Assembly (NCBI GenBank): GCA_964443325.1
Contig: CAYUCL010000003.1
Span: forward strand, 100,519-164,518
From: an uncultured Dehalococcoidales bacterium
Lineage (GTDB): Bacteria; Chloroflexota; Dehalococcoidia; E44-bin15
DNA: 64,000 nucleotides
Reading direction: 5' to 3'
The notes beneath the pieces were generated by a model, which saw only the letters and a program-made list of their open reading frames with translations, did not search any database and was not told the origin of the DNA. Shown one piece after another: positions 5,603 through 29,724 of the stretch (position 1 is its first letter; each line of letters starts with the position of its first letter). The translations under genes and the position numbers were made by a program.

Positions 5603-5631
5603 TTGACACTTAGTTGGCCGAAGGTTAGTAT
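5603..5631 (+). promoter_or_regulatory. sigma70-type promoter of the 2-oxoacid:ferredoxin oxidoreductase operon
   Basis: TTGACA-N17-TAGTAT, 46 nt before the ATG at 5677. Confidence 0.7.
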
Positions 5632-5676
5632 TAGACAATCCAGTCATAGTGCCCCCCAGATACAGAGAGCGGCCTA

Positions 5677-6264
5677 ATGAATCAATTATCGAATAGAAGC
5701 AAGGAAATCTACGAGATTAGATGGCATGGGAGGGGCGGTCAGGGAGCGGTTACCAGTGCTCAGATCTTGGCTGAGGCTGCGTACTACGCTGGATATAAGG
5801 GTGTGACATCCGCCCCCTATTTTGGTGCGGAGAGAAGAGGGGCTCCGGTTACTGCCACTACCAGGTTCTCTTCCGAGCCCATCAGGGTTTATTCCGAGGT
5901 GGAGACCCCAGATGTAGTAATGGTGCTCGATGAAAGCCTTCTAAAGTTCAGCGATGTTATATCCGGTCTCAACCAGGGAGGGTGGTTAGTAGTAAATAGC
6001 ATGAGGAGACCGGCCGAAATAGGCCTGATGGGTGAATTCCAAATCGTCACTGCCAATGCTACAGAAATCGCCCATGAGCTTGGTCTGGTGGTGGCTGGCG
6101 TCACTGTGGTAAACACCCCCATCCTGGGTGCTTTTCTTCGAGCTACTGGGTTGCTATCTCTAGACAGTGTGCGCCAAGCGATAATGGGCAAATTCTCAGC
6201 CACGGATGCCGACAGAAATTTCAGGGCAGTGCAGTTAGCCTTCGAGAAGACGCTCCTGAAATAG
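5677..6264 (+). CDS. porC: 2-oxoacid:ferredoxin oxidoreductase gamma subunit
   Basis: EIRWHGRGGQGAVT, FGAERRGAPV, VNTPILGA. Confidence 0.9.
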   Translation: MNQLSNRSKEIYEIRWHGRGGQGAVTSAQILAEAAYYAGYKGVTSAPYFGAERRGAPVTATTRFSSEPIRVYSEVETPDVVMVLDESLLKFSDVISGLNQGGWLVVNSMRRPAEIGLMGEFQIVTANATEIAHELGLVVAGVTVVNTPILGAFLRATGLLSLDSVRQAIMGKFSATDADRNFRAVQLAFEKTLLK

Positions 6265-6329
6265 ACTAGCCTTCGATTCACCTGTGGCATAGTGGTAAAT
6301 TATACGATTAGTAAAGGATTGGAACTGCA

Positions 6330-6629
6330 ATGCATACAAGAGATTGCGGTAATATATCCGGTGTGTCATTTCCCAGCATTGGCGAGGCAGGAAAGACAGG
6401 CGACTGGAGAGAGTTAACGCCAGTCATCGATCCCCTGAAGTGCATACCAGTGAAGAGGCACAAGCCTTCCTGTTTCCTCTGCTGGCTATACTGCCCAGAG
6501 GCGGCAATCAAAAGGGGCATTCCCGTGGAAATAGACTTAGAGTACTGTAAAGGTTGTGGAATCTGTGCTGAGGAATGCCCGACAGGAGCCATTGCAATGG
6601 TAGAGGAAAACAATCTGACAGCAGGATAG
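6330..6629 (+). CDS. porD: 2-oxoacid:ferredoxin oxidoreductase delta subunit (2x[4Fe-4S])
   Basis: GKTGDWR, C-x9-CFLCWLYCPE, YCKGCGICAEECP. Confidence 0.88.
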   Translation: MHTRDCGNISGVSFPSIGEAGKTGDWRELTPVIDPLKCIPVKRHKPSCFLCWLYCPEAAIKRGIPVEIDLEYCKGCGICAEECPTGAIAMVEENNLTAG

Positions 6630-6647
6630 AGTGAGGTGTGTTAGACC

Positions 6648-7865
6648 TTGAAAGAAACAGCGGATAATACACAGATAATCACCGGCAACTATGCTACCGC
6701 CATGGCAGCCAAATTGAGCCGGGTTCAGGTAGTTGCCGCTTACCCCATCACTCCTCAATCTCCAGCGACTGAGGCCCTGTCCCAGTTCGTCGAAAGGGGC
6801 GAATTGGATGCCGAGTACGTCAGGGTTGAGAGTGAGCACAGTGCCCTCGGGGTATGTATAGCTGCGTCAACCGTGGGCGCTCGCACCTTCACCGCCACCA
6901 GCGCCAATGGGCTGGCATATATGTGTGAGCAGCTTCATTGGGCAGCCGGAGCCCGCCTTCCCATTGTGCTTGCCTGCGTCAATCGCGCCATGGCAGCGCC
7001 GTGGAGCGTGCTCAACGACCAGCAGGACTCCATATCTCAAAGGGATACGGGTTGGATTCAAATATACGCCCGAAACAGCCAGGAGATTCTGGACTCTATC
7101 ATCCAGGCCTATAAGATCGCTGAGAGCCTATACGTGCCGGTAATGGTGGGCTACGATGGTTACATCCTGTCCCATACGGTGATGCCGGTCGACATTCCTA
7201 ACCAGGAGCAGGTGGACCGCTTTCTCCCCCCATATAAGCCCCATACCATCCTTGATCCCGCCGCTCCTCAGAATCTGAATCTCGTTACCTTGGCAAATCC
7301 CAGGCAAGATGCTCACGGCGTTATGTGCCACGGATACATGGAGCTCAGGTATCTCCTTCAAGAGGCACTGGAGAGTTCCTTAGAGACAATTGTAGAAGTA
7401 GACAGCGAATTTAACGACACCTTTGGTCGCAGCTATGGAGGTACTTATTGGGGGTATCGTCTGGAGGATGCCAACTTGATCCTGGTGGCTATGGGCAGCC
7501 TCGCCACCGAGGCTACGGTGGCGGTTGACCAGCTCAGGCAACGAGGCCACAGGGCTGGGCTGCTAGCTCTAAGGGTCTATCGCCCCTTCCCCAGGCAAGC
7601 TATGATATCTGCAACTAAGAAGGCGGAGCTAATCGTAGTCTTTGACAAGAACATCAGCTATGGCTATGAGGGTGCTACATGCTCTGACCTGAAGGCAGCC
7701 CTCTATGGAAGCGGTATCCAGGTGCCGGTGCACAACTATATTGCAGGCCTGGGGGGCAGAGACGTCAAAGCCAGAGAGCTGGCCGATGCCGCCGAGAGGT
7801 CACTGCGACAAGTGGAAGAAGGCCGACCGCAAAAGGAAGTCGAGTGGTTGAATTGCCACATCTGA
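6648..7865 (+). CDS. porA: 2-oxoacid:ferredoxin oxidoreductase alpha subunit
   Basis: AAYPITPQS, VESEHSA, TATSANGL; TTG start. Confidence 0.9.
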   Translation: MKETADNTQIITGNYATAMAAKLSRVQVVAAYPITPQSPATEALSQFVERGELDAEYVRVESEHSALGVCIAASTVGARTFTATSANGLAYMCEQLHWAAGARLPIVLACVNRAMAAPWSVLNDQQDSISQRDTGWIQIYARNSQEILDSIIQAYKIAESLYVPVMVGYDGYILSHTVMPVDIPNQEQVDRFLPPYKPHTILDPAAPQNLNLVTLANPRQDAHGVMCHGYMELRYLLQEALESSLETIVEVDSEFNDTFGRSYGGTYWGYRLEDANLILVAMGSLATEATVAVDQLRQRGHRAGLLALRVYRPFPRQAMISATKKAELIVVFDKNISYGYEGATCSDLKAALYGSGIQVPVHNYIAGLGGRDVKARELADAAERSLRQVEEGRPQKEVEWLNCHI

Positions 7866-7889
7866 GACATTTGGTTTGAGGACATTGAG

Positions 7890-8780
7890 ATGACAGAAAG
7901 CGTGCTGAGCCTACCCAAAAAGGAATATATGCTTCCCGGAAACAGGACCTGTGCTGGTTGCGGTCTGGGCATTGCCTATCGCCATATCCTCAGGGCGCTG
8001 GGGGAGAACACAATCGTTACCGTGCCCGCTAGCTGTCTCACCGTTCTCCATGGCATGTATCCCATCACCTCGGTGAACATCCCGTGCATGAATGTCACCT
8101 TTCCCAGCACTGCGGCGGCATCGTCAGGGCTTGTCGCCGGTCTGAAGGCGTTAGGAAAGAAGGGGATTACGGTGGTAGGCTTTGCCGGCGATGGAGGGAC
8201 CCATGACATCGGAATCCAGGCTCTAAGCGGCGCCGCCGAGAGGAACACCGATTTCATCTACATCTGCTACGACAATGAGGCTTACATGAACACCGGGGGC
8301 CAACGCTCCAGCTCCACCCCCCTGGGGGTTACCACGACTACCACCCCCGTGCTGGGCAAAGCGCAGCATCAGAAGGACATGCCAGCCATAATGGCAGCCC
8401 ACAGGATACCCTATGTAGCTACAGCCTCATCTTCCTATCCCCTCGACCTCTATGAAAAGGTTAAAAAGGCAAAGGACATCACCGGCACCAGGTTCATTTA
8501 CATCTCCACGCCCTGTCCTCCTGGATGGTTCTTCCCCCCCAAGGACACGGTGAAGATGGGCCGTCTGTCAGTTGAAACGGGGATGGTCGTCCTCTACGAA
8601 ATAGAGAACGGGGCGTTTCATCTCACCGGAGCCAGCGAGAGGCTGGCGGCAAAGGGTGGACTAAAGCCAGTGCGAGAGTACATCGAGCGTCAGGGACGGT
8701 TCCGCCGCATCACCGAGGCTCAGATAGACGAGCTGCAGAGATGGGTAGCTGATAGGTGGGCGCAATATACCTCCCATTAA
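7890..8780 (+). CDS. porB: 2-oxoacid:ferredoxin oxidoreductase beta subunit (TPP-binding); substrate (pyruvate vs branched/aromatic 2-oxoacid) not determinable
   Basis: CAGCG, GDGGTHDIG, DNEAYMNTGGQRS, PCPPGW. Confidence 0.9.
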   Translation: MTESVLSLPKKEYMLPGNRTCAGCGLGIAYRHILRALGENTIVTVPASCLTVLHGMYPITSVNIPCMNVTFPSTAAASSGLVAGLKALGKKGITVVGFAGDGGTHDIGIQALSGAAERNTDFIYICYDNEAYMNTGGQRSSSTPLGVTTTTTPVLGKAQHQKDMPAIMAAHRIPYVATASSSYPLDLYEKVKKAKDITGTRFIYISTPCPPGWFFPPKDTVKMGRLSVETGMVVLYEIENGAFHLTGASERLAAKGGLKPVREYIERQGRFRRITEAQIDELQRWVADRWAQYTSH

Positions 8781-10206: not shown

Positions 10207-10458
10207 TCACTTGAGACAACTGTCGATGTATTTCACAAAATCGTCAATCGAGGCGAGCTCTTTCATCCGTTCGATGTCTATCTCTATATCAAAGGCGTTT
10301 TCGACCCCGACTATAATCTGCACCCAGTGCAGCGAGTCAGCTTTAATGTCCTTTAGAGCCGTCTCCAAGCGAATCTCGTCCTCACTGCACCGCGCGATCC
10401 TGGCTATTATCCTTCTTACTTCATCTAATGCTGCCGTTACCATGTCTCCCTCCAGCAA
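10207..10458 (-). CDS. Acyl carrier protein (divergent)
   Basis: 83 aa, acidic; KADSLHWVQIIVGVENAFDIEI contains the DSL phosphopantetheine site. Confidence 0.88.
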   Translation of the reverse strand: MLEGDMVTAALDEVRRIIARIARCSEDEIRLETALKDIKADSLHWVQIIVGVENAFDIEIDIERMKELASIDDFVKYIDSCLK

Positions 10459-10482
10459 CTATTCAACATAAGAACCTGAGTT

Positions 10483-11517
10483 CTATTCACTTGATGACAT
10501 ACCCGCCTGGGCCTTTTCCAGCTCAACGCGAAGCTTACCGACGAAGTCGGTCTCCAATGCTATCTTCGCCTGCTCGATAGTACCGACAATCTGGGGCGCC
10601 TGGCTACTGCCATGTGCGACAGCCACTACACCGTTGACCCCCCATAGAGGACCACCGCCTAAGACCGTTCCCGGGCTCATGAGCCTCACTAGCTTGCCGG
10701 TGACTTTGTCCAGTTCCTCTGGCGAAAGCGTATCCTTTAGCTCCTCTGCCATCCAAGGGCCAATAGCCCTCCCCAGACCCTCGCAAAACTTCACCACTAT
10801 ATTACCCACAAAACCGTCGCAGACTATTACATTCGCCTTCCCCACCACTATATCCATGCCCTCCACATTGCCAATGAAGTTCAAATCGCTTTTCTTGAGC
10901 AAAGAGTAAGCCTCCTTGGCCACATCATTGCCCTTACCTTCTTCAGCACCTACGTTGAGCAGGCCAACTGTAGGCTCGTCTATTCCAAGGAATATCCTTG
11001 CATAAACAGTGCCAGCCGCAGCAAAGTTCAACAGATGATATGGCTGGCAACCCACGTTGGCTCCCAGGTCGAGGACTACAGTCTCTGGCGCCAGCCCCAG
11101 GAAAGGTCCCCCCGCCATCGGCCGGTCTATCCCGGGCAAAGTCCCTAAATATTGAAGCGCGGCTACCATAGCGGCGCCGGTCGAACCAGCGCTAACCATA
11201 GCGTCTGCTTCACCCTCCTTAACAAGTCTGGCGGCCATCGCAACCGGGCTGTTTGGCTTGCGTAAAACAGCAAATGCCGGCTCCTCTCCATCCCTGATAA
11301 GGTCATTGGCCTCCACTATCCTAATCTGGAGGCCAGTTGCGTTAACTCCGCTAAGCTCTTTCTCAATATCGGGCTTTATGCCGACCAGCACTATCTCGAC
11401 CCCCAATTTCCTTGCCGCCTCAACCGCTCCCTTCACTATCTCGCCAGGAGCGTAGTCGCCACCCATGGCGTCAATCGCTATTCTCATTGGCTGCTTTGTG
11501 CCATCTGACTCGCTCAT
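10483..11517 (-). CDS. plsX: Phosphate:acyl-ACP acyltransferase
   Basis: RIAIDAMGGDYAP, SAGSTGA, PGIDRP, LDLGANV, LLNVGAEEGKG, CDGFVGN, AHGSS. ATG 11517 follows a GGAGG SD. Confidence 0.93.
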   Translation of the reverse strand: MSESDGTKQPMRIAIDAMGGDYAPGEIVKGAVEAARKLGVEIVLVGIKPDIEKELSGVNATGLQIRIVEANDLIRDGEEPAFAVLRKPNSPVAMAARLVKEGEADAMVSAGSTGAAMVAALQYLGTLPGIDRPMAGGPFLGLAPETVVLDLGANVGCQPYHLLNFAAAGTVYARIFLGIDEPTVGLLNVGAEEGKGNDVAKEAYSLLKKSDLNFIGNVEGMDIVVGKANVIVCDGFVGNIVVKFCEGLGRAIGPWMAEELKDTLSPEELDKVTGKLVRLMSPGTVLGGGPLWGVNGVVAVAHGSSQAPQIVGTIEQAKIALETDFVGKLRVELEKAQAGMSSSE

Positions 11518-11564
11518 AGCGCCTCCCTTCTCTCTGCACATTGATTATAGATGATGACTTAAGC

Positions 11565-12629
11565 TTACCAGCTATGGCTTATTGCGTCCTGCGGGCAAAC
11601 GCTGTGACAGTTCATTTCGTGCGAGTTGCTACAGGAATCGAATCCCGGACAAACCAAAGCCAGCTTTTTCCTTATCTCTTCCTTCACCTTAGCTTTCGGC
11701 CGGCCATAGTCATCCTCAGCTATCTCGAAAACGTCCGACGGGCACGCCTGCACGCACTCTCCACAGCCATCGCACAGGGCATTATCAACTGTGATGAAGT
11801 ACTCACCTGTCCCATCGGTGTACCCATAGTTCACCTTCATCTCCTTTGTGCCCCTGCTATCACGCCTCTCCGTAGCAAAAAGCGCTGCGCCAACAGCGCC
11901 TACTATCTGCGGGTCCTCACATAGCAACGGCTCAAGGCCAACCTTCTCCCTTAGTTTCTCCACCATCCCCTTGTTCTTGGCAATCCCCCCAGTGATGCTG
12001 AATTCCTTTTCTATCGATACCCGCTTCAACAGTTGAACCGACCTGGTCGCTATGGCGTCATGGAGGCCGGCTAATATATCGCTCTTGGCTACCCCTTCCT
12101 TGAGATGCACCAGCGCCTCTGAGCGGGCGAATACAGCACAAACAGTATTGAAGAGGATTGCCTTATCCGAAGTAAGTGACAGGTCTCCAATCTGTTCCAG
12201 AGGAATGTTCAGCACCTCGGCTATCATTTCAAGAAACCTGCCGGTACCTCCAGCGCACTTATCATTCATGACAAAATTGACCACCCGGCCACTTCCATCA
12301 CAACTTATTGCTTTGCAGTCCTGTCCCCCCATATCCAGAATTGTCCTAACCGATGGGAAGTACCAGTTGATACCTCGGGCATGGCAGCTTATCTCGGATA
12401 TATTCTCATTGGCGAAGGGAACGAGCACCCTTCCATAGCCGGTGGCGACAGTATAATCAATGTCACTCAGCGATAGTCCCGTTCCTTTTAGCACCGCCTC
12501 TATCGTCATATAGGATGTCTTTGCACTTTCGGGTCCAGTATCACAGATTACCGACGATACTATAGCTCCGTTTCGCATTATCACCGCCTTTGCCGCCCGC
12601 GACCCGATATCTATTCCGGCAACCGTCAT
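11565..12629 (-). CDS. ATP-dependent activase subunit (BcrA/BzdQ/HgdC family) fused to a C-terminal BzdM-like [4Fe-4S] ferredoxin
   Basis: GIDIGS, ATGYGR, EISCHARG, LDMGGQDCK, MNDKCAGGTG, CAVFARSE. Tail NYGYTDGTGEYFITVD..CDGCGECVQACP..CPQDAISHSW. Confidence 0.88.
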   Translation of the reverse strand: MTVAGIDIGSRAAKAVIMRNGAIVSSVICDTGPESAKTSYMTIEAVLKGTGLSLSDIDYTVATGYGRVLVPFANENISEISCHARGINWYFPSVRTILDMGGQDCKAISCDGSGRVVNFVMNDKCAGGTGRFLEMIAEVLNIPLEQIGDLSLTSDKAILFNTVCAVFARSEALVHLKEGVAKSDILAGLHDAIATRSVQLLKRVSIEKEFSITGGIAKNKGMVEKLREKVGLEPLLCEDPQIVGAVGAALFATERRDSRGTKEMKVNYGYTDGTGEYFITVDNALCDGCGECVQACPSDVFEIAEDDYGRPKAKVKEEIRKKLALVCPGFDSCSNSHEMNCHSVCPQDAISHSW

Positions 12630-13421
12630 CTAGCTAGCCTCTTTCTCCATAGCTTCTCTGGCCAGAATTGCAGCACCGAGGGCTGACACAATCTGTGGCA
12701 CATCAGGTACCAGCACTGCGAAGCCCAGTTCCTTTTCCATGGTTTTTACCACGCCATCATTTAAGGCTACGCCGCCGACTAAAGCGACATCCTTTTCGAT
12801 GCCTGCTCTTTTGCATAAGGTCATGATTCGGCTCACCACAGAGTAGTAAATCCCGGCTATTATCTCTTCCTTCGGGGTTGGAGGATCTCGATGTACGTGC
12901 GATATGACCTCAGATTCGGCGAACACCGCACAGGTGCTGGTGATGCTAGCCCTTGATTTCGCCTTAAAGGATAACTCCGACATCTCCCCTAGAGACATCT
13001 GCATTAGCTTTGCCATTTGTTGAAGGAATATGCCCGTTCCGGCAGCGCATTTATCCTGGCCTGCCCAATCGTTGACACGTCCACGCTCATTCAGCTTGAC
13101 CACTGTGCTGCTCTCTGCCCCCATATCGATAACCATCCGACTGGAGGGGAACAGGTAGCGCGCCCCGCGGGCAAGACAGGTAGTAATTGCTTTCTTCTGC
13201 TGGATAAACGACACCGATTTCGCCCCTGCACCGGTTGACACGATATACAAATCGTCATTTATGCTGATCCCCGCCTGACTCAAAGACTCCTCCATAGCCA
13301 TACGAGCGCTCTCCTCTGCCTCATCGCCAGACATTATGATAGTGGAGGTCAAGATACCATTGTCAGATAGAATAACTGCCTTCGTTGTCAGGCTGCCTAC
13401 ATCTATACCCAGCGTCTTCAT
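12630..13421 (-). CDS. Second ATP-dependent activase subunit (BcrD/BzdP-like)
   Basis: GIDVGSLTTK, IDMGAES, QDKCAAGTG, STCAVFAESEVIS, GGVALN. Confidence 0.88.
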   Translation of the reverse strand: MKTLGIDVGSLTTKAVILSDNGILTSTIIMSGDEAEESARMAMEESLSQAGISINDDLYIVSTGAGAKSVSFIQQKKAITTCLARGARYLFPSSRMVIDMGAESSTVVKLNERGRVNDWAGQDKCAAGTGIFLQQMAKLMQMSLGEMSELSFKAKSRASITSTCAVFAESEVISHVHRDPPTPKEEIIAGIYYSVVSRIMTLCKRAGIEKDVALVGGVALNDGVVKTMEKELGFAVLVPDVPQIVSALGAAILAREAMEKEAS

Positions 13422-13438
13422 AGTCAGTCTAAGTCTAA

Positions 13439-14707
13439 TTAACGGTCTTCCAGCAACTCAAAGAAACGTTCCATTTTCTCAGCAACCTCCTCCTGCGAAG
13501 CGACGGTAGGGTCAACAACATCACAGTCCAAGGTTAACACTGGCACATCAATATCATTAAGGACATCTTTAAACGTCTTTATCGTTGCGCAGGTATGCCG
13601 GCATCCAACATCGGCATAGTATATGGCCCCATCCACCTTGTATTCCTCGGCAAGGGTTGCAACCCTGGTCAATTGCCGCTCATCCAGTGGCCCATACATC
13701 TGCGCCTCAGGGATCATGTATGATTTTTTCGCAACACTCTCCAGTGGCTTAGCAGGGTTAAGCCGACCCTCCCCCCAGTAGGTAAAAAATGGTTCGGTTA
13801 CACTCACCGCCCCATACTCCTGCGAGATTCTCTCTAAAAATCCCATCAAATACATCGGCGGGAGGAACAGGCTCATTAGACGGAAGCGTTCATTAGGCAC
13901 CGCCCCCTTTCCCTGTTGAACCATATCCGTCAGTTCCTGGCGAAGTGTCTCCAGATACGCGGTCGCCTCAGGCCGACCAGCGAGTAGATAATCGACCGAC
14001 AATAGCTGCAAAAAACCCTGCGAATGAAACGGTGTAGGAACAACCTTACGCAGTTCATTGATCTCACGATAAAGCTCAATTTGTTTGTCCGTTTCTGCCA
14101 CAACCTCGCTAAGACGATCCCAATCCATCTTGCGCCCTGAGTGCTCTTCTAAAAATCGTACCATGTCCTCCAATTCCCCCATCAAATACGCTATCTCCTC
14201 TTCACTATTGTGGAATGGGTGATCAATGAAGAATCCAGGACACCGGTTAATCTTCATTAGCAATTCTCCGCTCTTGGCGGTGTTGTCGCAGACCATGTTG
14301 GACCATAGCATCACATCGGGGCGGGGCAAGGTTCCCAGTGAAAAGGCACCAGCGAGGCCACGGTGTGGAGTGCATATTTCGGGGGCCAAACCTAGGTCGG
14401 CACCGGCTGAAAGGATTTCGGCAATCTCACCTGAGAACAGCGATATCATCCACGTGGTCGTCTCAGCATGCATAGGCAATATGTCCATGGCATATATGAT
14501 CTCCGACGGGAAGAACACGGTATGGGCCGCAATAAAATCTCCAGTCTCACGAGCATTAAGCAGCCGATCGTAGTAATTAGCCAGCATCTCATAATACATA
14601 GCTTCGCTCTTCAAAGCCTCAGGGCGCGCCTGGTTCATCCTGGCAATCAACCGGCAGGCTCGTATGATGGTTTTAAGATCGCTTCCCTCCCCCTTCGGGC
14701 TCGTCAT
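13439..14707 (-). CDS. 2-hydroxyacyl-CoA dehydratase / benzoyl-CoA reductase catalytic-module subunit (HgdA/BcrB-like)
   Basis: Three spaced Cys (EICTP, VCDNTAK, GCRH), KVDGAI, PVLTLDCD; overlaps the next gene by 4 nt. Confidence 0.85.
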   Translation of the reverse strand: MTSPKGEGSDLKTIIRACRLIARMNQARPEALKSEAMYYEMLANYYDRLLNARETGDFIAAHTVFFPSEIIYAMDILPMHAETTTWMISLFSGEIAEILSAGADLGLAPEICTPHRGLAGAFSLGTLPRPDVMLWSNMVCDNTAKSGELLMKINRCPGFFIDHPFHNSEEEIAYLMGELEDMVRFLEEHSGRKMDWDRLSEVVAETDKQIELYREINELRKVVPTPFHSQGFLQLLSVDYLLAGRPEATAYLETLRQELTDMVQQGKGAVPNERFRLMSLFLPPMYLMGFLERISQEYGAVSVTEPFFTYWGEGRLNPAKPLESVAKKSYMIPEAQMYGPLDERQLTRVATLAEEYKVDGAIYYADVGCRHTCATIKTFKDVLNDIDVPVLTLDCDVVDPTVASQEEVAEKMERFFELLEDR

Positions 14708-15879
14708 CTCTTTTTTGCCTCCAACATCTCCAGAAAAGCCTGGACCCTGGTCTTAATCTGTCCAGACCCTGATGTGCCGAATTCCACGTCCAAGGGGAGG
14801 ATGGGTATCCCCTGCGCTTTTAGCCTCTCTGTCATCAGCGGTAAATCATGAGCGTAGGGTACGCAATACCTGATAATCTCGCTGATTACACCATCGACCC
14901 TGAACTGCTTGATAAGGTCGAAGATACGGTCAAAGCGCTCGTCAGAGGGGAACATACGGGCGCAAGGGAAATTGCTAAGATAGCGACGCGAGATTGCCTC
15001 GATAGGCGTTGTTGACCCCTCGATAACCACCAGGTCGTACCAGTACCTGGTACTGGTGCACAGCTCATCGGTCACCACCAACCCTCCCTCTGTCTCAATA
15101 GACCTGATGAACTCGGGGTTCTCCAGTACGCTACCGACAATCATCAAGCGGACGCGGCCTTTGTTACCAATGCCAGATACAGAAAGCTCGTCCAGCAGGT
15201 CCCTGAGCCACTGGTTAAACAGCTCCTTGGGCATGTGGAAGCTGGCGATCAGTACCTCCATGGTTTCAGCGCCGGTGATGGGTGGATTGTCCGATTTGCG
15301 TAGTTCATAGAGTTCCCTAAGCAGTGTCCTCGATTCATTGTATACCTCAATAGAATGGAGCAATGCTTCATCACTAATTGTAGTCTCAAGGAATTCCTCC
15401 AGATGCTGCTTGAACTTCACCACCTGGTCCAAATATAGCTGATGTGCTCTCTCATTATACTTGCGGGGTACCGTCAGCACGTCATGAAACGGTGTGCCAA
15501 TGTACTTCCGCCACAAATCGAATAGCCGTCGGGCACCATCGCAGGTAGACCCACCAACGACACCATCTAAAAAATCGTACTCTCCTCTTAGACCCATTTG
15601 CAGGCAACTTCGAGAAAATGAGCAGCTATTAACATAGAGGTAAGCGGTACCGTCTTCAAGCTCCACTTCTGTAGGATAGCCGGTTATCCTGATGGGCAGT
15701 GCACCGGCAGCATGAATGATTTCTTCGGGGACATAGGTACACAGCCAACCAAATACCTTCCCGCCTTGCTGCTTGAAATCCAGAATCTCTTTAGCATGTG
15801 GGAAGGTTCTGTTTAGTTCTCTAAACCGTTCAAGTGTAGGTAGACTTGCGTTATTCTTGTGTGGTGTATCTATCATCAC
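14704..15879 (-). CDS. 2-hydroxyacyl-CoA dehydratase / benzoyl-CoA reductase catalytic-module subunit (HgdB/BcrC/BzdN-like)
   Basis: GWLCTYVPEEIIHAAG, NSCSFSRS, STCDGARR, RYCVPY, QIKTRVQAFLEML. Confidence 0.87.
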   Translation of the reverse strand: MMIDTPHKNNASLPTLERFRELNRTFPHAKEILDFKQQGGKVFGWLCTYVPEEIIHAAGALPIRITGYPTEVELEDGTAYLYVNSCSFSRSCLQMGLRGEYDFLDGVVGGSTCDGARRLFDLWRKYIGTPFHDVLTVPRKYNERAHQLYLDQVVKFKQHLEEFLETTISDEALLHSIEVYNESRTLLRELYELRKSDNPPITGAETMEVLIASFHMPKELFNQWLRDLLDELSVSGIGNKGRVRLMIVGSVLENPEFIRSIETEGGLVVTDELCTSTRYWYDLVVIEGSTTPIEAISRRYLSNFPCARMFPSDERFDRIFDLIKQFRVDGVISEIIRYCVPYAHDLPLMTERLKAQGIPILPLDVEFGTSGSGQIKTRVQAFLEMLEAKKR

Positions 15880-15911
15880 AAATTATATATATTTAACCAA
15901 CTTTACCAGTT

Positions 15912-16781
15912 CTACAAGTCAAGCTCAGGTTGGAAACCAACGAATATAGCTCCAGGCCCAGCACCATATCCCATGACGGGGCTATAGTCACTGATTATGA
16001 TGCTGAGACAATTGAATTCTCTCCTCAATTGCTTAACAAAGGCTTCTGCTAGCTGAGGGGCATTGGCATGGGATACGATGAAATGCAGGGCATCCGTATC
16101 CACCTCCTTCTTGATTTGCTCGAGCAGCTTGCTGTAGCCATCGCTCCGCTTTCTTACTATATCTACGGGTTCTATCGTGCCCTCATCAGTCATCCGGTTC
16201 ACTGGCTTTATCTTAAGCTTGGCCGCCTTCAAGGCTTCGTCTTTCGTCATGCGCCCGGTGCGGTAGACATACCGCAAGGTATCAAGCAGCATCAGCCCAC
16301 CTGTCTTTTGACGAACCTCTTCGGCAAAACCAGCCAACCTATTGAGCTCCGTTCCCTTTGCTGCCTCTTTGGCCACCGCCAAAACCACCAGGCCCTGCGC
16401 TCCAGCCACTGTTCTTGAATCGACGATACGGATGGTCGTCTCTGGCGATTCCTTTTGTAACTGCTCTGCTGCCACACTGGCAGTATTGAAGAATGCGCTC
16501 AGTGTAGAAGAAAGGGTAATCATAAGTATCTCATTGGACTCCGCACTTGCCTTGCGATATTCATTCACCAGTAGACCAGGAGAAGTTGCCGATGTCTCGA
16601 ACTTGTCAGGGTCTTTGGTAATCAGCTCGTAAGCCTCGGCAGCGGTGATGTCTATCCCTTCTGTATATGCCTTGCCGTCAAACAATATGTTGGCTGTTGG
16701 GACTATCCTGATGCGGTTCTGCTCAGCTATGTCACTGGGGATACAAGCCACATTGTCGGTCATCATAACTACATTCGGCAA
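15912..16781 (-). CDS. DegV/FakB-family fatty-acid-binding protein (divergent)
   Basis: MMTDN, TSATSPG, ITLSSTLS, IVDSRT, DTLRYVYRTGR, SPVMGYGAGPG. Confidence 0.85.
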   Translation of the reverse strand: MPNVVMMTDNVACIPSDIAEQNRIRIVPTANILFDGKAYTEGIDITAAEAYELITKDPDKFETSATSPGLLVNEYRKASAESNEILMITLSSTLSAFFNTASVAAEQLQKESPETTIRIVDSRTVAGAQGLVVLAVAKEAAKGTELNRLAGFAEEVRQKTGGLMLLDTLRYVYRTGRMTKDEALKAAKLKIKPVNRMTDEGTIEPVDIVRKRSDGYSKLLEQIKKEVDTDALHFIVSHANAPQLAEAFVKQLRREFNCLSIIISDYSPVMGYGAGPGAIFVGFQPELDL

Positions 16782-16841
16782 TCTCGCACCTCCTTATCAA
16801 ACTTTTTACCTGGGACTACCCGGAAGCAAGGCACTGGTCTA

Positions 16842-17654
16842 TCATGATATAAGATAGCCTCCATCCACAACCACGAGGCTGCCGGTCATGTAGCCGGCCA
16901 AATCCGATGCCAGGAACAGGGCCACCCGTCCCACATCGTCGGCTTCGCCCATCCGACCCAAAACCATCCGCGCCATAAACGCCTTTAGCTCCGACTTGCC
17001 TTGCGCCGTTGAGCTTCCAGTGACATGCGACAGCATGCTTTCTGTAAGAATCCCACCGGGAGCAATGGCATTCACCCGTATGTCATACTGCCCAAGTTCG
17101 AGCGCCATGCTCTTGGTTAAGGATAAGACACCGCCCTTGGATGCATCGTAAGCGGACAGCCCTTTAGACGACGGGTGTAGGGAATCGATGGAGGCGATGT
17201 TTATAATACACCCACCTCGTCTCTTCTGTATCATATGTTGGCTTGCTTCTCGGCTGCAGAGAAAGGCACCCTTTAGATTTACCGCCATCACCTGCTCGAA
17301 GTCCTCACCGCTCATCTCTGTCAAGGGCACCCTTGGATATATACCAGCATTGTTCACGAGAATGTCAATTCTGCCGAATTCACCCACCGCCGTGATCACC
17401 ATGTTCCGCACATCATCTTCCTTGCTTACATCACACTCTACAGAGATCGCACGATAGCCATAGCTCCTCAGCTCCTGGCTGGCCTGCTGAGCCCTCTCCT
17501 CGTTGGTATCAGCAATAGCGATGGTGGCTCCTGCCTCAGCAAGTCGATAGGAAATGGCGAAGCCAATACCCATAGCGCCACCGGTAACGATAGCTGCCTT
17601 TCCTGTGAGCTTTATGAGGTCATTGAGCGGTATGTTTTTCTGCGGTGGACTCAT
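16842..17654 (-). CDS. Short-chain dehydrogenase/reductase (FabG-like classical SDR)
   Basis: TGGAMGIG, NNAG, YDASKGG (YxxxK), NAIAPG, VDGG; acidic residue after beta2 (IADT) suggests NAD(H). Confidence 0.92.
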   Translation of the reverse strand: MSPPQKNIPLNDLIKLTGKAAIVTGGAMGIGFAISYRLAEAGATIAIADTNEERAQQASQELRSYGYRAISVECDVSKEDDVRNMVITAVGEFGRIDILVNNAGIYPRVPLTEMSGEDFEQVMAVNLKGAFLCSREASQHMIQKRRGGCIINIASIDSLHPSSKGLSAYDASKGGVLSLTKSMALELGQYDIRVNAIAPGGILTESMLSHVTGSSTAQGKSELKAFMARMVLGRMGEADDVGRVALFLASDLAGYMTGSLVVVDGGYLIS

Positions 17655-17690
17655 ATCTATTCTAATAGACCCTGTTCTGAGCCAATTTTA

Positions 17691-17710
17691 ATAGCAATCG
17701 CAATTGCTAT
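17691..17710. promoter_or_regulatory. Perfect palindrome ATAGCAAT-N4-ATTGCTAT in the operon leader; candidate operator
   Basis: 8-bp perfect inverted repeat between the promoter and the SDR start. Confidence 0.5.
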
Positions 17711-17780
17711 GCATCCTGGTCGTCGTTACTACTTTGACGCACAATAGCGCAACTCTGATCACTCATTTCCCTAGCTATTG

Positions 17781-17809
17781 ATTTTATTCATACAGCGCCT
17801 AGCCGTCAA
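17781..17809 (-). promoter_or_regulatory. sigma70-type promoter for the SDR-DegV-BCR-like-plsX-ACP operon
   Basis: Minus strand TTGACG-N17-TAAAAT. Confidence 0.6.
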
Positions 17810-17944
17810 GCCTGCTGTTGCCAGCATTGGAGCCTCCGTCACAGTATTAGAATGGCATGGTAACAATATAACCCAATCATTTCCATTCTGTTTGCCAGTC
17901 CAGATAGAGGTATAACACGTTGGCTCACTACAAAAAGAGGTAAA

Positions 17945-18094
17945 CAGAATAGCGTTGATAGCCTCATGCTACAGAGACTATTAGGGCATACAAAGTTAAT
18001 GACGACAAATCGATATTGCTAGGCTGTTGGTTGCTATGATGCGATAGAGGGTCACAAACGTTATTCACCTGTGGATAGACTGGCCTCGCTATAA
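17945..18094 (+). pseudogene. C-terminal remnant of a tyrosine recombinase/integrase with an in-frame stop
   Basis: Frame of ATG 17966 reads QNSVDSLMLQRLLGHTKLMTTNRYC*AVGCYDAIEGHKRYSPVDRLASL*. Contains the LQxLLGH...T..Y box II with catalytic Tyr, TAG at 18020-22, and no recognisable HxxRH or N-terminal part. Confidence 0.8.
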
Positions 18095-20443
18095 AGCTAT
18101 GATATCTGACAATTCAGCTTCTTCAGGTTCTAGCTGGCTCAAAGTAGATATCATGGGTATAAGTATAGGCGATATTGCTCTGGTTAATAGCTTAACCCTA
18201 TCAGGAATTGACTCCCCATTTTCAATGTTCGGGTTCTTATTTCCAAGATCACTCAATTCTCGAAGTAAAGACATACCTATTAATACTACACCATAGCGGA
18301 ATTGCGCCATTAGAAGATTAACATCTATTGCTGGTTTGGCATACTTTAATTCAGTTTGTAGGCAAATGTTATCTATGTTTACGTAGAAATCATACTTACC
18401 ATCTCCTATTGGTATAACGTCTAAAGCATCAAATTCATCGAAATGATGGTTATCCCAACCATCACGATGTACATCAATGATTTCTGGTATGGTTAATAAT
18501 GACGGAATTTGCTTATTTGCTCCTTTGTTACCTGGTGGTGGAGAATCTCCTGTGGTGCCTCCCTTTTGGTGTTTTTTTCTTGGAGATACAATGACCTGGA
18601 ATGCGTCTTCGAAAGGTCCCCATTTAATAGCGTCTTTGACTATAGTATTGTATTTGACTATATAGTTTGGTTTTACTCCCTTAGGTAAAGAAACAGTTAA
18701 GTTTGCTGTCCCATTCCATAGGGATAAAACATAGTCAGTTACTTCAATACCATTAGCTAATAATATGAATTCACCTGGATCATCATCTCTGTCAAAGTAG
18801 TCATTTGAAGCGTCAGTCTCAAACTGAACTCGGAAGCGCCAATTGATTGGGCAATTTTTGATGAACTCTTTATGTTTCTTTCTCTGTAATCTGAAGTAGG
18901 TAGGATATTTGTTGCCATAGTAGATTTGGCCGATTCCAGTTTCTTCAAAGTGAAATGGATTTGGTAATTTACCTCCTACAGAAAGCAATTTCGCAAGTGT
19001 TGGAGAGTTTCTGATTACCTTCTCAATAACATCCATAAGGGGTTTGGACTCTTCTAATTTGTCCCTAATTTCTTCCTGTCTACGTTTTTCTCTTAATGCT
19101 CTTAATCCTGGATGTTCCTTTATTATCCGCTCGAGTTGGGTTTCTATTTCGTTTCTTAATTCACATGCGCTTAACCGGTCTCTACTGTTCATAAATAGAT
19201 CTTCTTTGAGTCTATCATCAAGATTAGTGCAATCAACGATTATGAGCAAAGAGTCTCTTAAATATCCCATACCAACGGCTTCATGTTGGAAAAACGTGGA
19301 TGGTAAATTGGCATGAGTTTGTCCATTGATAGTGAAAATTACGCCTTCATTACGCCGATAAGTTGAGGACTGGCCTTTTCTAAATGCATAAACCTGAGCT
19401 TGCAGCCTTTGTCCCATGCAAGCGATTTGATGAGAACTTGGATATGTAGGCTCTAGATTTTGTCTTTTGTCTTCTTCTAATCGTACACTTAAACCCGATA
19501 GGGTCGTTTCAAAAGTATGACCAGAGTAACCGTTCCTACGCTCAAATAATCTTACAGGTAATGCTATGTTGGGCATGAGTAAAGAGAGAGCATTGTAGAG
19601 ATCAAAGAGAATATTCGTTTTAAGTCCCTGTATGTTATACTCATATAATTTTATATAGGTGCCCCATTCCAGAGGTACTCCGAATTTGTTCGGATATGGA
19701 CCGGGTAATAGTGGTAATGAGTCAGCTTTAAAAGAGGGGATCTTATCTTCGGGCGCTAAATACGTGTATGCAGAGGTACGTCGATTACCACGTGGATCTT
19801 CTCTCCTTACTACAGTGAATCCCCATGTGTTACTCTCTCCAGGCAAAAGTATTTTTGGATTACGTTTAGATACAACCAATTGCATATGGTGTTGACCACA
19901 AAACCTAAAAGCTCCGGTTCCTCCCATATGGAATTTTCCTTGTACAAATGGGATTTCACTTTTGATGGACTTGAAAAGGCCAAGTAAGGTCTTCGGCATA
20001 TTTTCAGGAGTCTGTCCTTCACCGCGATCAATTATGGAATAACAAGGATTACTTTTTGATCCTGTGGCTACAAGGCTGATGTCTTCAGCAAGATTGGCCC
20101 TTTTTCTTGTATTCATCTTGGATAGTATTCCTTCTGGGATGTCATAGAATCTTATAAGTGCTTCGGTTACATCTCTAGGTGCTTCTTTACTCTTGGGGTC
20201 AATACCACTTTCAAAACATTTGCCCAATAGCAATGAGTCGACTGAATTGACGATCTTTTCAACAAGCGCATATTCCGCTCGGCTTTGTTGGTTACCTATA
20301 GTTGAATAATTATCTTCGATATCTCCAAAATACCGCCAGCATGATAGATCATCCCAATACTTATTTAGCTGCAAAGTTTTCACTATTTCATTTTCTGTTT
20401 CGCACTCAGCAAGAGCTAAAAACATGTCTTTGTAATTCATCAT
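18089..20443 (-). CDS. GHKL (HSP90/MutL/MORC-like) ATPase domain protein, 784 aa
   Basis: ALVEKIVNSVD (motif I), IIDRGEGQ (DxGxG), GKFHMGGTG (ATP-lid Gly motif), then an S5-like segment (TINGQTH..EDLFMNSRDRL), a coiled coil and an unknown C-terminal region. Confidence 0.7.
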   Translation of the reverse strand: MMNYKDMFLALAECETENEIVKTLQLNKYWDDLSCWRYFGDIEDNYSTIGNQQSRAEYALVEKIVNSVDSLLLGKCFESGIDPKSKEAPRDVTEALIRFYDIPEGILSKMNTRKRANLAEDISLVATGSKSNPCYSIIDRGEGQTPENMPKTLLGLFKSIKSEIPFVQGKFHMGGTGAFRFCGQHHMQLVVSKRNPKILLPGESNTWGFTVVRREDPRGNRRTSAYTYLAPEDKIPSFKADSLPLLPGPYPNKFGVPLEWGTYIKLYEYNIQGLKTNILFDLYNALSLLMPNIALPVRLFERRNGYSGHTFETTLSGLSVRLEEDKRQNLEPTYPSSHQIACMGQRLQAQVYAFRKGQSSTYRRNEGVIFTINGQTHANLPSTFFQHEAVGMGYLRDSLLIIVDCTNLDDRLKEDLFMNSRDRLSACELRNEIETQLERIIKEHPGLRALREKRRQEEIRDKLEESKPLMDVIEKVIRNSPTLAKLLSVGGKLPNPFHFEETGIGQIYYGNKYPTYFRLQRKKHKEFIKNCPINWRFRVQFETDASNDYFDRDDDPGEFILLANGIEVTDYVLSLWNGTANLTVSLPKGVKPNYIVKYNTIVKDAIKWGPFEDAFQVIVSPRKKHQKGGTTGDSPPPGNKGANKQIPSLLTIPEIIDVHRDGWDNHHFDEFDALDVIPIGDGKYDFYVNIDNICLQTELKYAKPAIDVNLLMAQFRYGVVLIGMSLLRELSDLGNKNPNIENGESIPDRVKLLTRAISPILIPMISTLSQLEPEEAELSDIIAL

Positions 20444-20454
20444 ATATCACCTTT

Positions 20455-20706
20455 TCATAGCCTAAATCTCTGCCTGTTTTCGCCTTTCCCTTGAAACTGA
20501 ATTTTTACTTCCCTGACTTTCCGTTCGATTTCTCGGAATATCTTGCGTACTTCCTCGTCATCATAATCGTAGTTTTTCCTATTTGAACATTTACCTAAAC
20601 TGTCCAAACTGTCGAGTATTCTATTTACTCTACGCTCAACAATTTTTATGAATCTTTGCCGCTTCATATCTACATTTTGAATATCTCGAGTTCTGATAGC
20701 TGTCAT
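20455..20706 (-). CDS. Small basic helical hypothetical protein (83 aa) co-transcribed with the GHKL ATPase
   Basis: AAGGAGG SD before ATG 20706; KRQRFIKIVERRVNRILDSLDSLGKCSNRKNYDY; 11 nt gap to the next gene. The ORF-track TTG at 20757 is the -35 box. Confidence 0.75.
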   Translation of the reverse strand: MTAIRTRDIQNVDMKRQRFIKIVERRVNRILDSLDSLGKCSNRKNYDYDDEEVRKIFREIERKVREVKIQFQGKGENRQRFRL

Positions 20707-20728
20707 AGGAACCTCCTTATATAGCAAA

Positions 20729-20757
20729 ATAATACCACAAATAATAGCATATGTCAA
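20729..20757 (-). promoter_or_regulatory. Near-consensus sigma70 promoter for the small protein-GHKL pair
   Basis: TTGACA-N17-TATTAT with TG extension. Confidence 0.75.
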
Positions 20758-20998
20758 GTGTTATATGATATATATCCCGAATATAGCCAATAATCGTGGA
20801 CATAATTAAAATATGTAGAATGGAATTGCACCTCTAAAAAAACCGACTTTGTCATGTAGGTAGGGAATACTAAGGGATTGTAAGACCTATGTTTGATACT
20901 AAGTCAAATGGTAGAGAAACATACTATGTCAGTTAGGTCAGTGAGGATTGAGGATAGTCATAACTTTTTAATGAATCGTCAGCGAAAATGGCACATTT

Positions 20999-21193
20999 CT
21001 AGGGCATATGTTTCTTATAACAGACTGCACAGTATTTCTTGGCATGTAGACTGTGAAGGAATTTATCTTGAACGTGTTCCTTCCAATAAGTCTCCCCGGG
21101 TGATATTTCTTTCCCGCAATCATAGCAAATATGTCTTGTCCTAGCTTTGATTTGCTTAAGAACCGGTAAATGACTGTATTTGCCCATTAACAA
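20999..21193 (-). CDS. Small zinc-finger-like protein
   Basis: KARTRHICYDCGKEISPGETY..KYCAVC (two CxxC); 5 nt downstream of the nuclease gene. Confidence 0.55.
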   Translation of the reverse strand: MLMGKYSHLPVLKQIKARTRHICYDCGKEISPGETYWKEHVQDKFLHSLHAKKYCAVCYKKHMP

Positions 21194-21198
21194 TGTGT

Positions 21199-22131
21199 TT
21201 ATATGGAATTATTCTTATAAGACTGCTTCGCTAAACTAATAATATAGTCAAGACTTTCATCGTCGCTGAATTGTATCTCATAATCTCCATTGCCCCAATG
21301 ACCAGTAGTCGACATGTCTCTTGTCATTTTCTTTTGGTCATTCAATTCGCCAATTCTAAGATTCAACCACAGTTTCAGCGCATTCTTCTGAATGTGAACG
21401 TCAACGAAATTTGTCTTAGCTATGAACCCTATGTATTTCTTAGTCGGTTTCACCTTTATACTGTTACCAATATCCAGCAAAGAGGCCCTTAGTTGTTCAT
21501 ACAATTCCCGTGTTTCACCAGAAGCGATTGATAGATGATCATCTTCCGTATATACCTTTATTTCTTTAGTCACGCCTTCAATAGTCTTACTTTTCGATGA
21601 AATAGTTTTTACTGATTCCATTGATCCTGAAGGCTGTATTTGCGATAAACCAATAGTTTCATTTGCATATTTTCTAATTTCCCAAAGTTCTATTGGTAAA
21701 TCTTTGAAATTGATCGACTGGACTTGATACTGCGTAAATAAAGGGGCTACGAATATTACCCTCGTTTGTGTCCAATCTACATCATTCTTTTTTATTGGTA
21801 ATTTGTGGCTTTCATAATATTCAAGAATACAATCAGCTTTATTATTAAGTACTATAGAAAGGTAAGCATATCCTTGATCTATAACGCTGAAATTTTTGTC
21901 TTTCTTATACTCGATTACGACAAAAGATTTCGTTTTGGTATCAAAAGCAAGTGTGTCTATTCTTAAATTTTGAAGGATGAATTCTGATTTCACAGTCTGT
22001 AATCCAAATATTTGAGAGAGATTATCCTCGCAAAGTCTCTGAATATCTTTTTCCAATTTGAAATCCATGCTCTCAATATTACTGAGCTTTCCGTTCTTAA
22101 CTGAATACATTTCCATAGACATAATCTCCAA
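21199..22131 (-). CDS. PD-(D/E)xK nuclease (NucS/EndoMS-like) fused to a DUF5655-like C-terminal domain; exact start uncertain (22110-22131)
   Basis: SEF..RIDTLAFD..VVIEYKK..IDQGYAY nuclease core; C-terminal NFVDVHIQK..GHWGNGDYEI. Confidence 0.72.
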   Translation of the reverse strand: MEIMSMEMYSVKNGKLSNIESMDFKLEKDIQRLCEDNLSQIFGLQTVKSEFILQNLRIDTLAFDTKTKSFVVIEYKKDKNFSVIDQGYAYLSIVLNNKADCILEYYESHKLPIKKNDVDWTQTRVIFVAPLFTQYQVQSINFKDLPIELWEIRKYANETIGLSQIQPSGSMESVKTISSKSKTIEGVTKEIKVYTEDDHLSIASGETRELYEQLRASLLDIGNSIKVKPTKKYIGFIAKTNFVDVHIQKNALKLWLNLRIGELNDQKKMTRDMSTTGHWGNGDYEIQFSDDESLDYIISLAKQSYKNNSI

Positions 22132-29719: not shown

Positions 29720-29724
29720 GCGAG

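Follow-up and report, generated by a model that had tools for sequence, protein, structure and literature searches.

An operon of Dehalococcoidia that links a predicted ATP- and ferredoxin-driven radical enzyme of the BCR/HAD superfamily to DegV, PlsX and an acyl carrier protein

An eight-gene operon in a 64,000-nucleotide stretch of DNA from an uncultured Dehalococcoidales bacterium (contig CAYUCL010000003.1; "the window" below means this whole stretch) joins a predicted radical enzyme of the benzoyl-CoA reductase/2-hydroxyacyl-CoA dehydratase (BCR/HAD) superfamily to proteins that handle fatty acids. We propose that the operon encodes a four-subunit Fe-S enzyme of this superfamily, driven by ATP and ferredoxin, that acts on fatty acyl groups bound to acyl carrier protein (ACP) and not on a CoA ester; we hold this reading tentatively and rate it a little below an even chance. 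The wider claim, that the enzyme acts on ACP-bound acyl groups in lipid metabolism, seems somewhat better than even, and the specific 2-hydroxy/enoyl chemistry outlined below is unlikely to prove right in its particulars.

The operon occupies positions 10207-17654 of the window, with all eight genes on the minus strand. The genes come from open reading frame (ORF) calls, and each assignment is backed by Pfam and NCBIfam. In transcriptional order, the features are:

17809-17781, minus strand: promoter-like hexamers TTGACG-N17-TAAAAT, 5' of the SDR gene (promoter scan)
17654-16842, minus strand: short-chain dehydrogenase/reductase (SDR), classical oxidoreductase, 270 amino acids (Pfam adh_short/adh_short_C2, 1e-60 to 1e-66)
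16781-15912, minus strand: DegV/FakB-family fatty-acid-binding protein, 289 amino acids (Pfam DegV, 1.5e-53; TIGR00762, 214 bits)
15879-14704, minus strand: subunit A, HGD-D family (PF06050), 391 amino acids (Pfam HGD-D, 3.3e-99)
14707-13439, minus strand: subunit B, HGD-D family (PF06050), 422 amino acids (Pfam HGD-D, 1.2e-60)
13421-12630, minus strand: ATPase ("archerase") subunit 1, 263 amino acids (BcrAD_BadFG, 2.4e-47; TIGR00241, 213 bits)
12629-11565, minus strand: ATPase subunit 2 (residues 1-255) with a ferredoxin domain (residues ~270-354) (BcrAD_BadFG, 3.3e-60; Fer4 families)
11541-10483, minus strand: PlsX phosphate acyltransferase, operon-type (TIGR00182, 279 bits, cut-off 243); start probably ATG 11517
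10458-10207, minus strand: divergent ACP, operon-type (PP-binding, 7.9e-11); start probably ATG 10443

From the SDR gene to the ACP gene, the intergenic distances are 60, 32, -4, 17, 0, 23 and 24 nt. The ORF calls and family assignments thus bear out an earlier model-made reading of the window (hereafter the original prediction), which had described eight same-strand genes in this order with gaps of -4 to about 60 nt. It had also placed the operon behind a promoter. The hexamers are present at the spacing given, but their status as a promoter has no statistical support: a scan of the window found 8 promoter-like sites, against 9.4 +/- 3.5 expected in shuffled sequence. Because such sites are no commoner than in shuffled sequence, the TTGACG-N17-TAAAAT site is not counted here as promoter evidence.

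The association of the radical enzyme with DegV, PlsX and ACP recurs across the class. More than 120 database clusters contain relatives of subunit B at 70-91% identity, and all of the named ones come from Dehalococcoidia or from metagenome-assembled genomes (MAGs) of Chloroflexota; public databases annotate them as "2-hydroxyacyl-CoA dehydratase" or "benzoyl-CoA reductase subunit". When representatives at 50% identity were searched exhaustively, a single close cluster came out; the others tail off from 47%, and 262 clusters have E <= 1e-30. A scan with one genome per GTDB species yielded 114 relatives; of the best 80, one sits on a 1.6-kb contig binned as Syntrophaceae, and the rest all belong to MAGs of Dehalococcoidia or Chloroflexota. 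A metagenome scan that started from remote relatives (44-47% identity) led back, for the most part, to the same family. Its few outliers (loci L104, L135 and L137) are orphan B-like genes, and the two that were annotated (L104 and L137) lie beside MFS transporters, which is uninformative.

The eight window proteins were mapped onto 83 non-redundant loci, 63 of which are covered downstream of the module, 60 upstream and 53 on both sides. The core of subunit A, subunit B and ATPase is nearly universal. Among loci covered downstream, the second ATPase/ferredoxin gene follows in 56, PlsX in 38, PlsX together with ACP in 37, and ACP without PlsX in 5; among those covered upstream, the SDR is present in 39 and DegV in 38. 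At least one of DegV, PlsX and ACP is adjacent on the same strand in 49 of the 53 species-level loci covered on both sides, and 14 of these have the full eight-gene order. The neighbourhood of BCR, PlsX, ACP and DegV, whose conservation the original prediction had singled out as something to check, is therefore retained in many genomes. In an all-against-all clustering of the ORFs, every other family was confined to 11 or fewer of the 83 loci, and the operon is thus a self-contained unit with variable flanks. Since it recurs in dozens of species with unrelated flanks, the arrangement goes far beyond chance. An ACPS phosphopantetheinyl transferase gene lies convergent with the operon and directly after it in 7 loci; in the window, acpS (4'-phosphopantetheinyl transferase), an NAD(P)HX repair gene, coaX and coaBC stand in a row about 10 kb away (27631-31694, plus strand). 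One MAG, CAZFRL01, bears two copies of the module (L026 and L079).

Are these partners simply the housekeeping proteins of the cell? By their sequences, the operon PlsX, ACP and DegV form lineages distinct from the housekeeping or fatty acid synthesis (FAS)-linked ones. In FakB, the carboxylate of the bound fatty acid is held by Thr61, Ser93, His264/266 and Arg170 (PMC10848957). The operon DegV keeps equivalents of Thr61, Ser93 and Arg170, but the carboxylate-binding His is replaced in all 53 operon-type DegVs (Gly in 44, Ala in 5, Ser in 4), and a Tyr precedes the lost position in 52 of the 53. DegVs encoded next to FakA retain this His. The operon DegV exceeds the cut-off of the wider DegV family (TIGR00762, 214 versus 99.7) and falls well below that of the FakB1 equivalog (121 versus 350). 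On the 2.3-Mb chromosome CP070842.1 (locus L167), a second DegV gene (3817-4674, minus strand) lies divergently upstream of the module, and its product is also without the carboxylate-binding His (IAATGP).

The operon PlsX scores above the equivalog cut-off of TIGR00182 (279 versus 243 bits), and identities among its relatives are bimodal: operon-type PlsX proteins are 56-78% identical to the window PlsX and 41-53% identical to the FAS-type, and FAS-type proteins show the reverse. The type of PlsX does not follow the identity of subunit B, as seen at locus L127 (B 71% identical, FAS-type PlsX) and locus L081 (B 59% identical, operon-type PlsX); because the two are uncoupled, the PlsX types look like paralogues and not like one orthologous lineage. 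Operon-linked ACPs carry the motif DSL[H/N/Q]W followed by VQII, while those of fab neighbourhoods have DSLD[I/V]. No NCBIfam ACP cut-off is reached by the window ACP (54 versus 66 at best; 46 versus 70.45 for TIGR00517), which retains the serine of the DSL motif. Its helix II region, DSLHWVQIIVGVENAF, has a net charge of -2, compared to -4 in the FAS-type ACP and -6 in E. coli AcpP. The SDR contains the motifs TGxxxGxG, NNAG and YxxxK and reaches no NCBIfam equivalog; an Asp after beta2 suggests a preference for NAD.

Compared with the FakA/FakB-PlsX system of Firmicutes, the operon shares a DegV/FakB protein with the Thr, Ser and Arg equivalents, a PlsX of equivalog level and an ACP acceptor. 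It differs in having no FakA, in the loss of the His and gain of the Tyr in DegV, in the distinct lineage of its ACP and PlsX, and in that the whole set shares an operon with a predicted radical enzyme. Chance adjacency to a housekeeping plsX-acpP pair was considered as an explanation and rejected, given the paralogue-specific motifs, the loci with ACP and no PlsX, and the variable flanks.

A sister lineage places the module in a different lipid context. There it abuts a FAS cluster in loci L073, L078, L040 and L062 and in the metagenome loci L108, L127, L147, L155, L161 and L166, with the gene order MaoC-type hydroxyacyl-ACP dehydratase pair, PlsX, ACP, FabL, FabF, FabG, DegV/FakB and, in some, FakA. 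NCBIfam places FabL (338 bits, cut-off 328), a FabF subfamily (477, cut-off 387) and FabG (327, cut-off 298) in the array. When four loci were picked solely by the similarity of their PlsX to the FAS-type, all four had subunit A, subunit B, ATPase and ATPase/ferredoxin immediately upstream and co-directional. The array comprises 12-14 genes separated by a few bases or overlapping. FakA follows in L073 and L168, and is not present there in L167 and L169; orthologues of the window SDR (60-67% identity; 63-66% where they occur in the four loci picked by PlsX) close the array in L073, L078, L166, L167 and L168. FabD and FabH are not found in the sister-lineage arrays.

The sister lineage thus builds the module into mainstream acyl-ACP metabolism, and in the lineage of the window the module comes with a dedicated set of DegV, PlsX and ACP. 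The presence of a type II FAS (FAS II) array argues for a link to mainstream acyl-ACP metabolism and not only to an exotic side pathway. The original prediction had suggested that the operon PlsX and ACP are specialised second copies and had argued from the lack of accompanying fab genes. The distinct lineages of PlsX, ACP and DegV fit the first idea, but the lack of fab genes holds only in the lineage of the window and fails as a general argument, given that the sister-lineage module heads an array of FabL, FabF, FabG, MaoC, PlsX, ACP, FakB and FakA. The notion that the module supplies a missing enoyl-ACP reductase of the FAS array was rejected, since the array holds a FabL above its equivalog cut-off. 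At L168, a second and different BCR/HAD-type set (two activases, then two HGD-D genes; 17747-21014) lies just downstream of the FAS II/Fak array.

What kind of enzyme do subunits A and B form? Among solved structures, subunit A matches BzdN best (184 bits), then DCCP (170) and HadC (155), and subunit B matches HadB (74 bits), BzdO (71) and MbdO (70), with 21-22% identity to both BzdO and HadB. The cluster ligands of BzdNO are known from a structure published in 2025 (PMC11971306). Cys47, 86, 113, 274, 306 and 339 of subunit A align with Cys36, 73, 100, 263, 293 and 327 of BzdN, the six ligands of the [8Fe-9S] double cubane, and all six are invariant in 116 of 116 distinct relatives. In subunit B, the Cys residues of the catalytic [4Fe-4S] cluster (Cys112, 140 and 369) and Glu82, the counterpart of BzdO Glu65, are invariant in 149 of 149 sequences. 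Other active-site residues of BzdO have changed: His131 becomes Thr143 (Thr in 139, Ser in 8 and Ala in 2 of the 149), and the ring-stacking Leu302 becomes Gly312 (Gly, Ala or Ser in most). Trp46 of BzdO falls outside the region that can be aligned with subunit B.

In NCBIfam, scores are far below the equivalog cut-offs of the Bzd/Bcr proteins (BzdN 180 versus 454, BzdO 80 versus 449, BzdQ 232 versus 380, BcrB 69 versus 487, BcrC 161 versus 421) and of the Had proteins (HadB 98 versus 750, HadC 188 versus 700). The best NCBIfam match of subunit A is the DCCP model NF040772, at 248 bits against a cut-off of 350, and the position of the seventh Cys of DCCP is Thr in subunit A. An AF2 model of subunit B (pLDDT 82.7) gave TM scores of 0.80-0.84 to HadB and 0.79-0.82 to BzdO, a comparison of folds that did not separate the two. 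Subunit A is accordingly predicted to be a BzdN/DCCP-like electron-storage subunit that binds an [8Fe-9S] double cubane, and subunit B is best described as a HadB/BzdO-like catalytic subunit with a predicted three-Cys [4Fe-4S] site that lies outside both characterised clades. In line with the doubt of the original prediction about benzoate catabolism, this is not an orthodox BzdNOPQ or HadBC: the scores are far below the equivalog cut-offs, subunit B has little identity to BzdO or HadB, and the ring-binding residues of BzdO are changed.

Further HGD-D genes appear in and around these loci. An extra B-like paralogue, 44-60% identical to the window B, sits between B and the ATPases in L087 and L088 (8013-9248) and in L122 (1302-4079), which suggests alternative substrate-binding subunits on one shared electron-delivery module. 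At L167, subunit B was called as two ORFs of 98 and 335 amino acids (6010-7276, plus strand), a frameshift or assembly error. A third HGD-D gene of the window (55120-56178, minus strand; 352 amino acids, Pfam 3.3e-29) stands alone between the genes for GAPDH and enolase; neither a partner subunit nor an activase adjoins it.

The two ATPases are 36% identical to each other. The cluster-bridging cysteines of ATPase subunit 1 are kept almost without exception (Cys125 in 120 of 120, Cys164 in 119 of 120), and Cys125 and Cys164 of ATPase subunit 2 are invariant in 97 of 97 sequences, as are the eight conserved Cys of its 2x[4Fe-4S]-type ferredoxin domain. ATPase subunit 2 reaches 232 bits with the BzdQ model, below the cut-off of 380. 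Two different ATPases occur in the window and in 56 of the 63 loci covered downstream, and the other 7 have one. Taken together, the double cubane, the unlike pair of ATPases and the ferredoxin make the predicted hardware BCR-like. A small flavodoxin gene of the window (59012-59449, minus strand) encodes a possible alternative low-potential electron donor and is unlinked to the operon.

The variant with one ATPase has the order A-B-ATPase-PlsX-ACP, without the SDR and DegV, and its neighbours include DUF1786, a response regulator, a B12-radical SAM enzyme and RND/MMPL transporters. Upstream of the module, a DUF1786 protein (annotated "putative PFL-activating enzyme") and a response regulator are found in L001, L016, L029 and L031, joined in L029 and L031 by an NAD-dependent epimerase/NAD_binding_4-like gene. 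After the ACP come MMPL transporters in L001, an RND (AcrB/MMPL) transporter in L025, L029 and L031, and B12-radical SAM genes in these same three loci.

Comparison with characterised systems places the module between several of them. With the Bzd-type BCR, BzdNOPQ plus BzdM (structure 8S02; 9G87 is the Mbd relative), it shares the gene order N-O-P-Q-ferredoxin, so that the bzd-like N-O-P-Q-(M) arrangement seen by the original prediction stands; it also shares the six double-cubane Cys of BzdN, the three cluster Cys and Glu of BzdO, and two different ATPases with bridging Cys. Here, however, the ferredoxin is fused to the second ATPase, subunit B shares only 21-22% identity with BzdO and has other residues in place of His131 and Leu302, and instead of a linked benzoate-CoA ligase or the ring-cleavage genes dch, had and oah there are DegV, PlsX, ACP and FAS II. 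HadBC with HadI (3O3M) includes the best sequence and fold match of subunit B, HadB, and has in common the three-Cys cluster, a free iron for the thioester carbonyl and an ATP-dependent activator of the ASKHA type. HadC, in contrast, has a three-Cys [4Fe-5S] cluster and no double cubane, whereas subunit A has the six-Cys double-cubane set (PMC11971306); HAD activators are homodimers from one gene and are used catalytically, whereas most loci here have two different ATPases and a ferredoxin (PMC11971306, PMC7317905); and the operon is without the CoA-transferase and D-2-hydroxyacid dehydrogenase. DCCP with DCCP-R (6ENO, 7YYL) has the six cluster Cys in common with subunit A, which scores 170-248 bits against DCCP and its model, but DCCP is a single-gene homodimer with a seven-Cys motif and the double cubane as its active site, while subunit A, like BzdN, has a distinct catalytic partner subunit.

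How might such an enzyme work on a fatty acid? An ACP thioester is the same phosphopantetheine thioester as that of CoA, and the two are chemically equivalent at the reacting end. The signature of the superfamily is ketyl-radical chemistry at the thioester carbonyl, which on a fatty acyl chain is needed for dehydration of a 2-hydroxyacyl to a 2-enoyl group or the reverse. In the mechanism that we favour, the specialised DegV would hold a carboxylic (fatty) acid with an unusual head region, FakA encoded outside the operon would phosphorylate it, and the operon PlsX would move the acyl group from the acyl-phosphate to the dedicated ACP. The thioester carbonyl would then bind the free iron of the subunit B cluster, and an ATP-energised electron would generate a ketyl radical that permits chemistry at C2/C3. 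The favoured reaction would be the interconversion of 2-hydroxyacyl-ACP and trans-2-enoyl-ACP, or a two-electron reductive loss of the 2-hydroxyl; the reductive variant is included because a simple dehydratase is not an obvious fit for the hallmarks of a BCR-type reductase. A 2-substituted acid would suit both the altered head-group pocket of DegV and an NAD-type SDR, and the SDR would handle the hydroxy or oxo group. The product would be an ordinary FAS II intermediate: the FabL of the sister-lineage array could reduce the enoyl-ACP, and PlsX could return the product to acyl-phosphate for PlsY. ACP as the carrier, the involvement of FakA, the reaction and its direction are all parts of what we propose here. 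At its fullest, the proposal is of the first BCR/HAD radical enzyme to act on ACP thioesters, as an integral ATP- and ferredoxin-driven step of fatty acid synthesis or salvage in Dehalococcoidia, possibly one that installs or removes a 2-hydroxyl independently of O2 by way of 2-hydroxyacyl-ACP and enoyl-ACP; we consider this possible, with the balance tilting against it.

Several observations weigh against this reading. What points to ACP as the substrate carrier is gene linkage alone, and neither PlsX nor ACP follows the module in 20 of the 63 loci covered downstream. The window contains no FakA, FabD or FabH. A second, housekeeping PlsX or ACP in the same genome was looked for and not found among the top-120 match lists for FAS-type and operon-type PlsX, which share no contig. 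Neither sequence nor fold tells HadB from BzdO as the nearer kin of subunit B, which is equidistant from the two. Finally, a double cubane, a pair of unlike ATPase subunits and a fused ferredoxin typify BCR-type reductases and not redox-neutral dehydratases (PMC11971306, PMC7317905). These features argue for stoichiometric electron input, and therefore reductive dehydroxylation or some other reduction, whether of an aryl- or alicyclic acyl-ACP or of the acyl carbonyl toward an aldehyde or ether, has also to be considered.

The reductase hardware would suit a dearomatising or other two-electron reductase of an aryl- or alicyclic-carbonyl-ACP, making unusual primers or acyl chains (cyclohexenyl, cyclohexyl) for lipids, in keeping with the alicyclic primers that the original prediction had raised. 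The BCR-type set is complete (six-Cys double cubane, heterodimeric ATPase, fused ferredoxin), BzdN is the best solved match of subunit A in an N-O-P-Q-(M) gene order, and the less acidic helix II of the dedicated ACP would insulate an unusual acyl group from FAS. The residues that sandwich and protonate the benzoyl ring in BzdO are not conserved, however (His131 replaced by Thr in 139 of 149 sequences, Leu302 by Gly, Ala or Ser in most); the DegV proteins of known structure bind long-chain fatty acids, the clustering of the 83 loci found no ligase or shikimate-type genes conserved nearby, and the sister lineage sets the module in an ordinary FAS operon. We regard this as very unlikely. Perhaps the acyl carbonyl itself is reduced, on acyl-ACP, acyl-phosphate or a lipid ester, toward fatty aldehydes, alcohols or alkyl/vinyl ether lipids. 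PlsA/PlsR and Ger are BCR/HAD relatives that reduce lipid ester carbonyls (PMC12838417; bioRxiv 10.64898/2026.06.23.733905), and they share with the module the superfamily, ATP-dependent activase domains, lipid substrates and O2 sensitivity. The reductase-type cofactor set is present, the SDR could reduce an aldehyde, and the one-activase variant lies beside a B12-radical SAM enzyme, an RND/MMPL transporter and an epimerase/NAD_binding_4-like gene. Ger and PlsA, however, are built from two fused PF01869 domains and a PF09989 reduction domain (bioRxiv 10.64898/2026.06.23.733905), whereas Pfam found neither PF09989 nor a fused duplicate PF01869 in the operon proteins, where PF01869 occurs in separate single genes beside PF06050 subunits. 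With this defining architecture missing, the analogy to PlsA/PlsR and Ger drawn by the original prediction breaks down at the domain level, and a reductase of this sort would have to lie outside that family. No glycerol-lipid acyltransferase genes are linked to the module in the clustering of the 83 loci, and the data hold no pointer to ether lipids in these organisms; such a reaction is quite unlikely.

The lipid genes might also be mere neighbours of an ordinary CoA-dependent enzyme, either a class I aryl-CoA reductase or a 2-hydroxyacyl-CoA dehydratase of amino acid fermentation. Public annotations read this way, MAG studies have taken bcr/bzd matches in Dehalococcoidia as benzoate degradation (PMC5736913, PMC10116835), and genes for two family III CoA-transferases, for a 2-oxoacid:ferredoxin oxidoreductase and for several acyl-CoA ligases lie in the window within 10-50 kb. 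But the scores of the module are far from the equivalogs concerned (BzdN 180 versus 454, BzdO 80 versus 449, HadB 98 versus 750, HadC 188 versus 700), and the CoA-transferase, ligase and oxidoreductase genes are not conserved beside it, while DegV, PlsX and ACP are, as dedicated paralogue lineages. The original prediction had noted that ring-cleavage enzymes are absent from the window, and this is upheld: among window ORFs of at least 120 amino acids, nearly all of them annotated with Pfam, there is no crotonase-type (Dch/Oah) family, although no equivalog-level search for Had was made. With the same limit for Had, no linked dch, had or oah was found in the loci either, and ORF clustering of the 83 loci revealed no recurrent family of this sort. 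A genuine benzoyl-CoA reductase or amino-acid-fermenting HAD is unlikely, and we consider the reading with bystander lipid genes as a whole very unlikely. The enzyme might instead be a DCCP-like reductase of some small non-acyl molecule that lies near lipid genes for regulatory or historical reasons. The double-cubane reductase model tops the NCBIfam matches of subunit A (248 bits), and the physiological substrates of DCCPs are unknown (PMC7317905). Yet subunit A falls short of the cut-off of 350, the seventh DCCP Cys is not conserved, the predicted partner is a HadB/BzdO-type subunit that keeps the substrate-side three-Cys cluster and Glu, and the linkage to ACP is tight, all of which makes this explanation scarcely credible.

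To our knowledge, all characterised BCR/HAD enzymes use CoA esters, except for the lipid-ester reductases PlsA and Ger. In full-text searches of the literature, no BCR/HAD enzyme was described in connection with PlsX, ACP or DegV, and nothing relevant came up on Dehalococcoidia together with 2-hydroxyacyl-CoA dehydratase. The operon presents a known kind of enzyme with a new set of partners and probably a new class of substrate carrier. If the proposal of action on fatty acyl-ACP is correct, an ACP-dependent member fed by a Fak/PlsX-type route would bring a reaction of a new kind into the lipid metabolism of bacteria and put ATP-driven low-potential electron transfer to a new use. Dehalococcoidia are abundant in marine and lake sediments and in aquifers, and are almost entirely uncultured; a system common among them may shape their membrane lipids and possible biomarkers. 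Many of the "bcr/bzd" markers of anaerobic aromatic degradation in Dehalococcoidia MAGs would then be lipid enzymes, and for this clade the inference of aromatic degradation from bcr/bzd matches (PMC5736913, PMC10116835) is doubtful.

Other parts of the window deserve brief mention. Directly upstream of the operon lies a low-GC island (18089-22131; GC 0.36-0.39, compared to about 0.50 around it), probably inserted as a mobile or defence element. It encodes a DUF5655 protein with a 430-bit match to PDC-S18, a candidate defence family in PADLOC, and also holds an ORF of 784 amino acids without a Pfam or PADLOC match and one of 100 amino acids. On the other side, positions 567-8780 hold a cluster of genes for a glycyl-radical enzyme (PFL-like plus Gly_radical), two family III CoA-transferases and three 2-oxoacid:ferredoxin oxidoreductase subunits. 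These look like an organic-acid fermentation or activation cluster, and they are not conserved beside the operon in other genomes. Farther away, a UbiA-family prenyltransferase gene is followed by one for a B12-binding radical SAM enzyme of 571 amino acids (37292-39956, plus strand).

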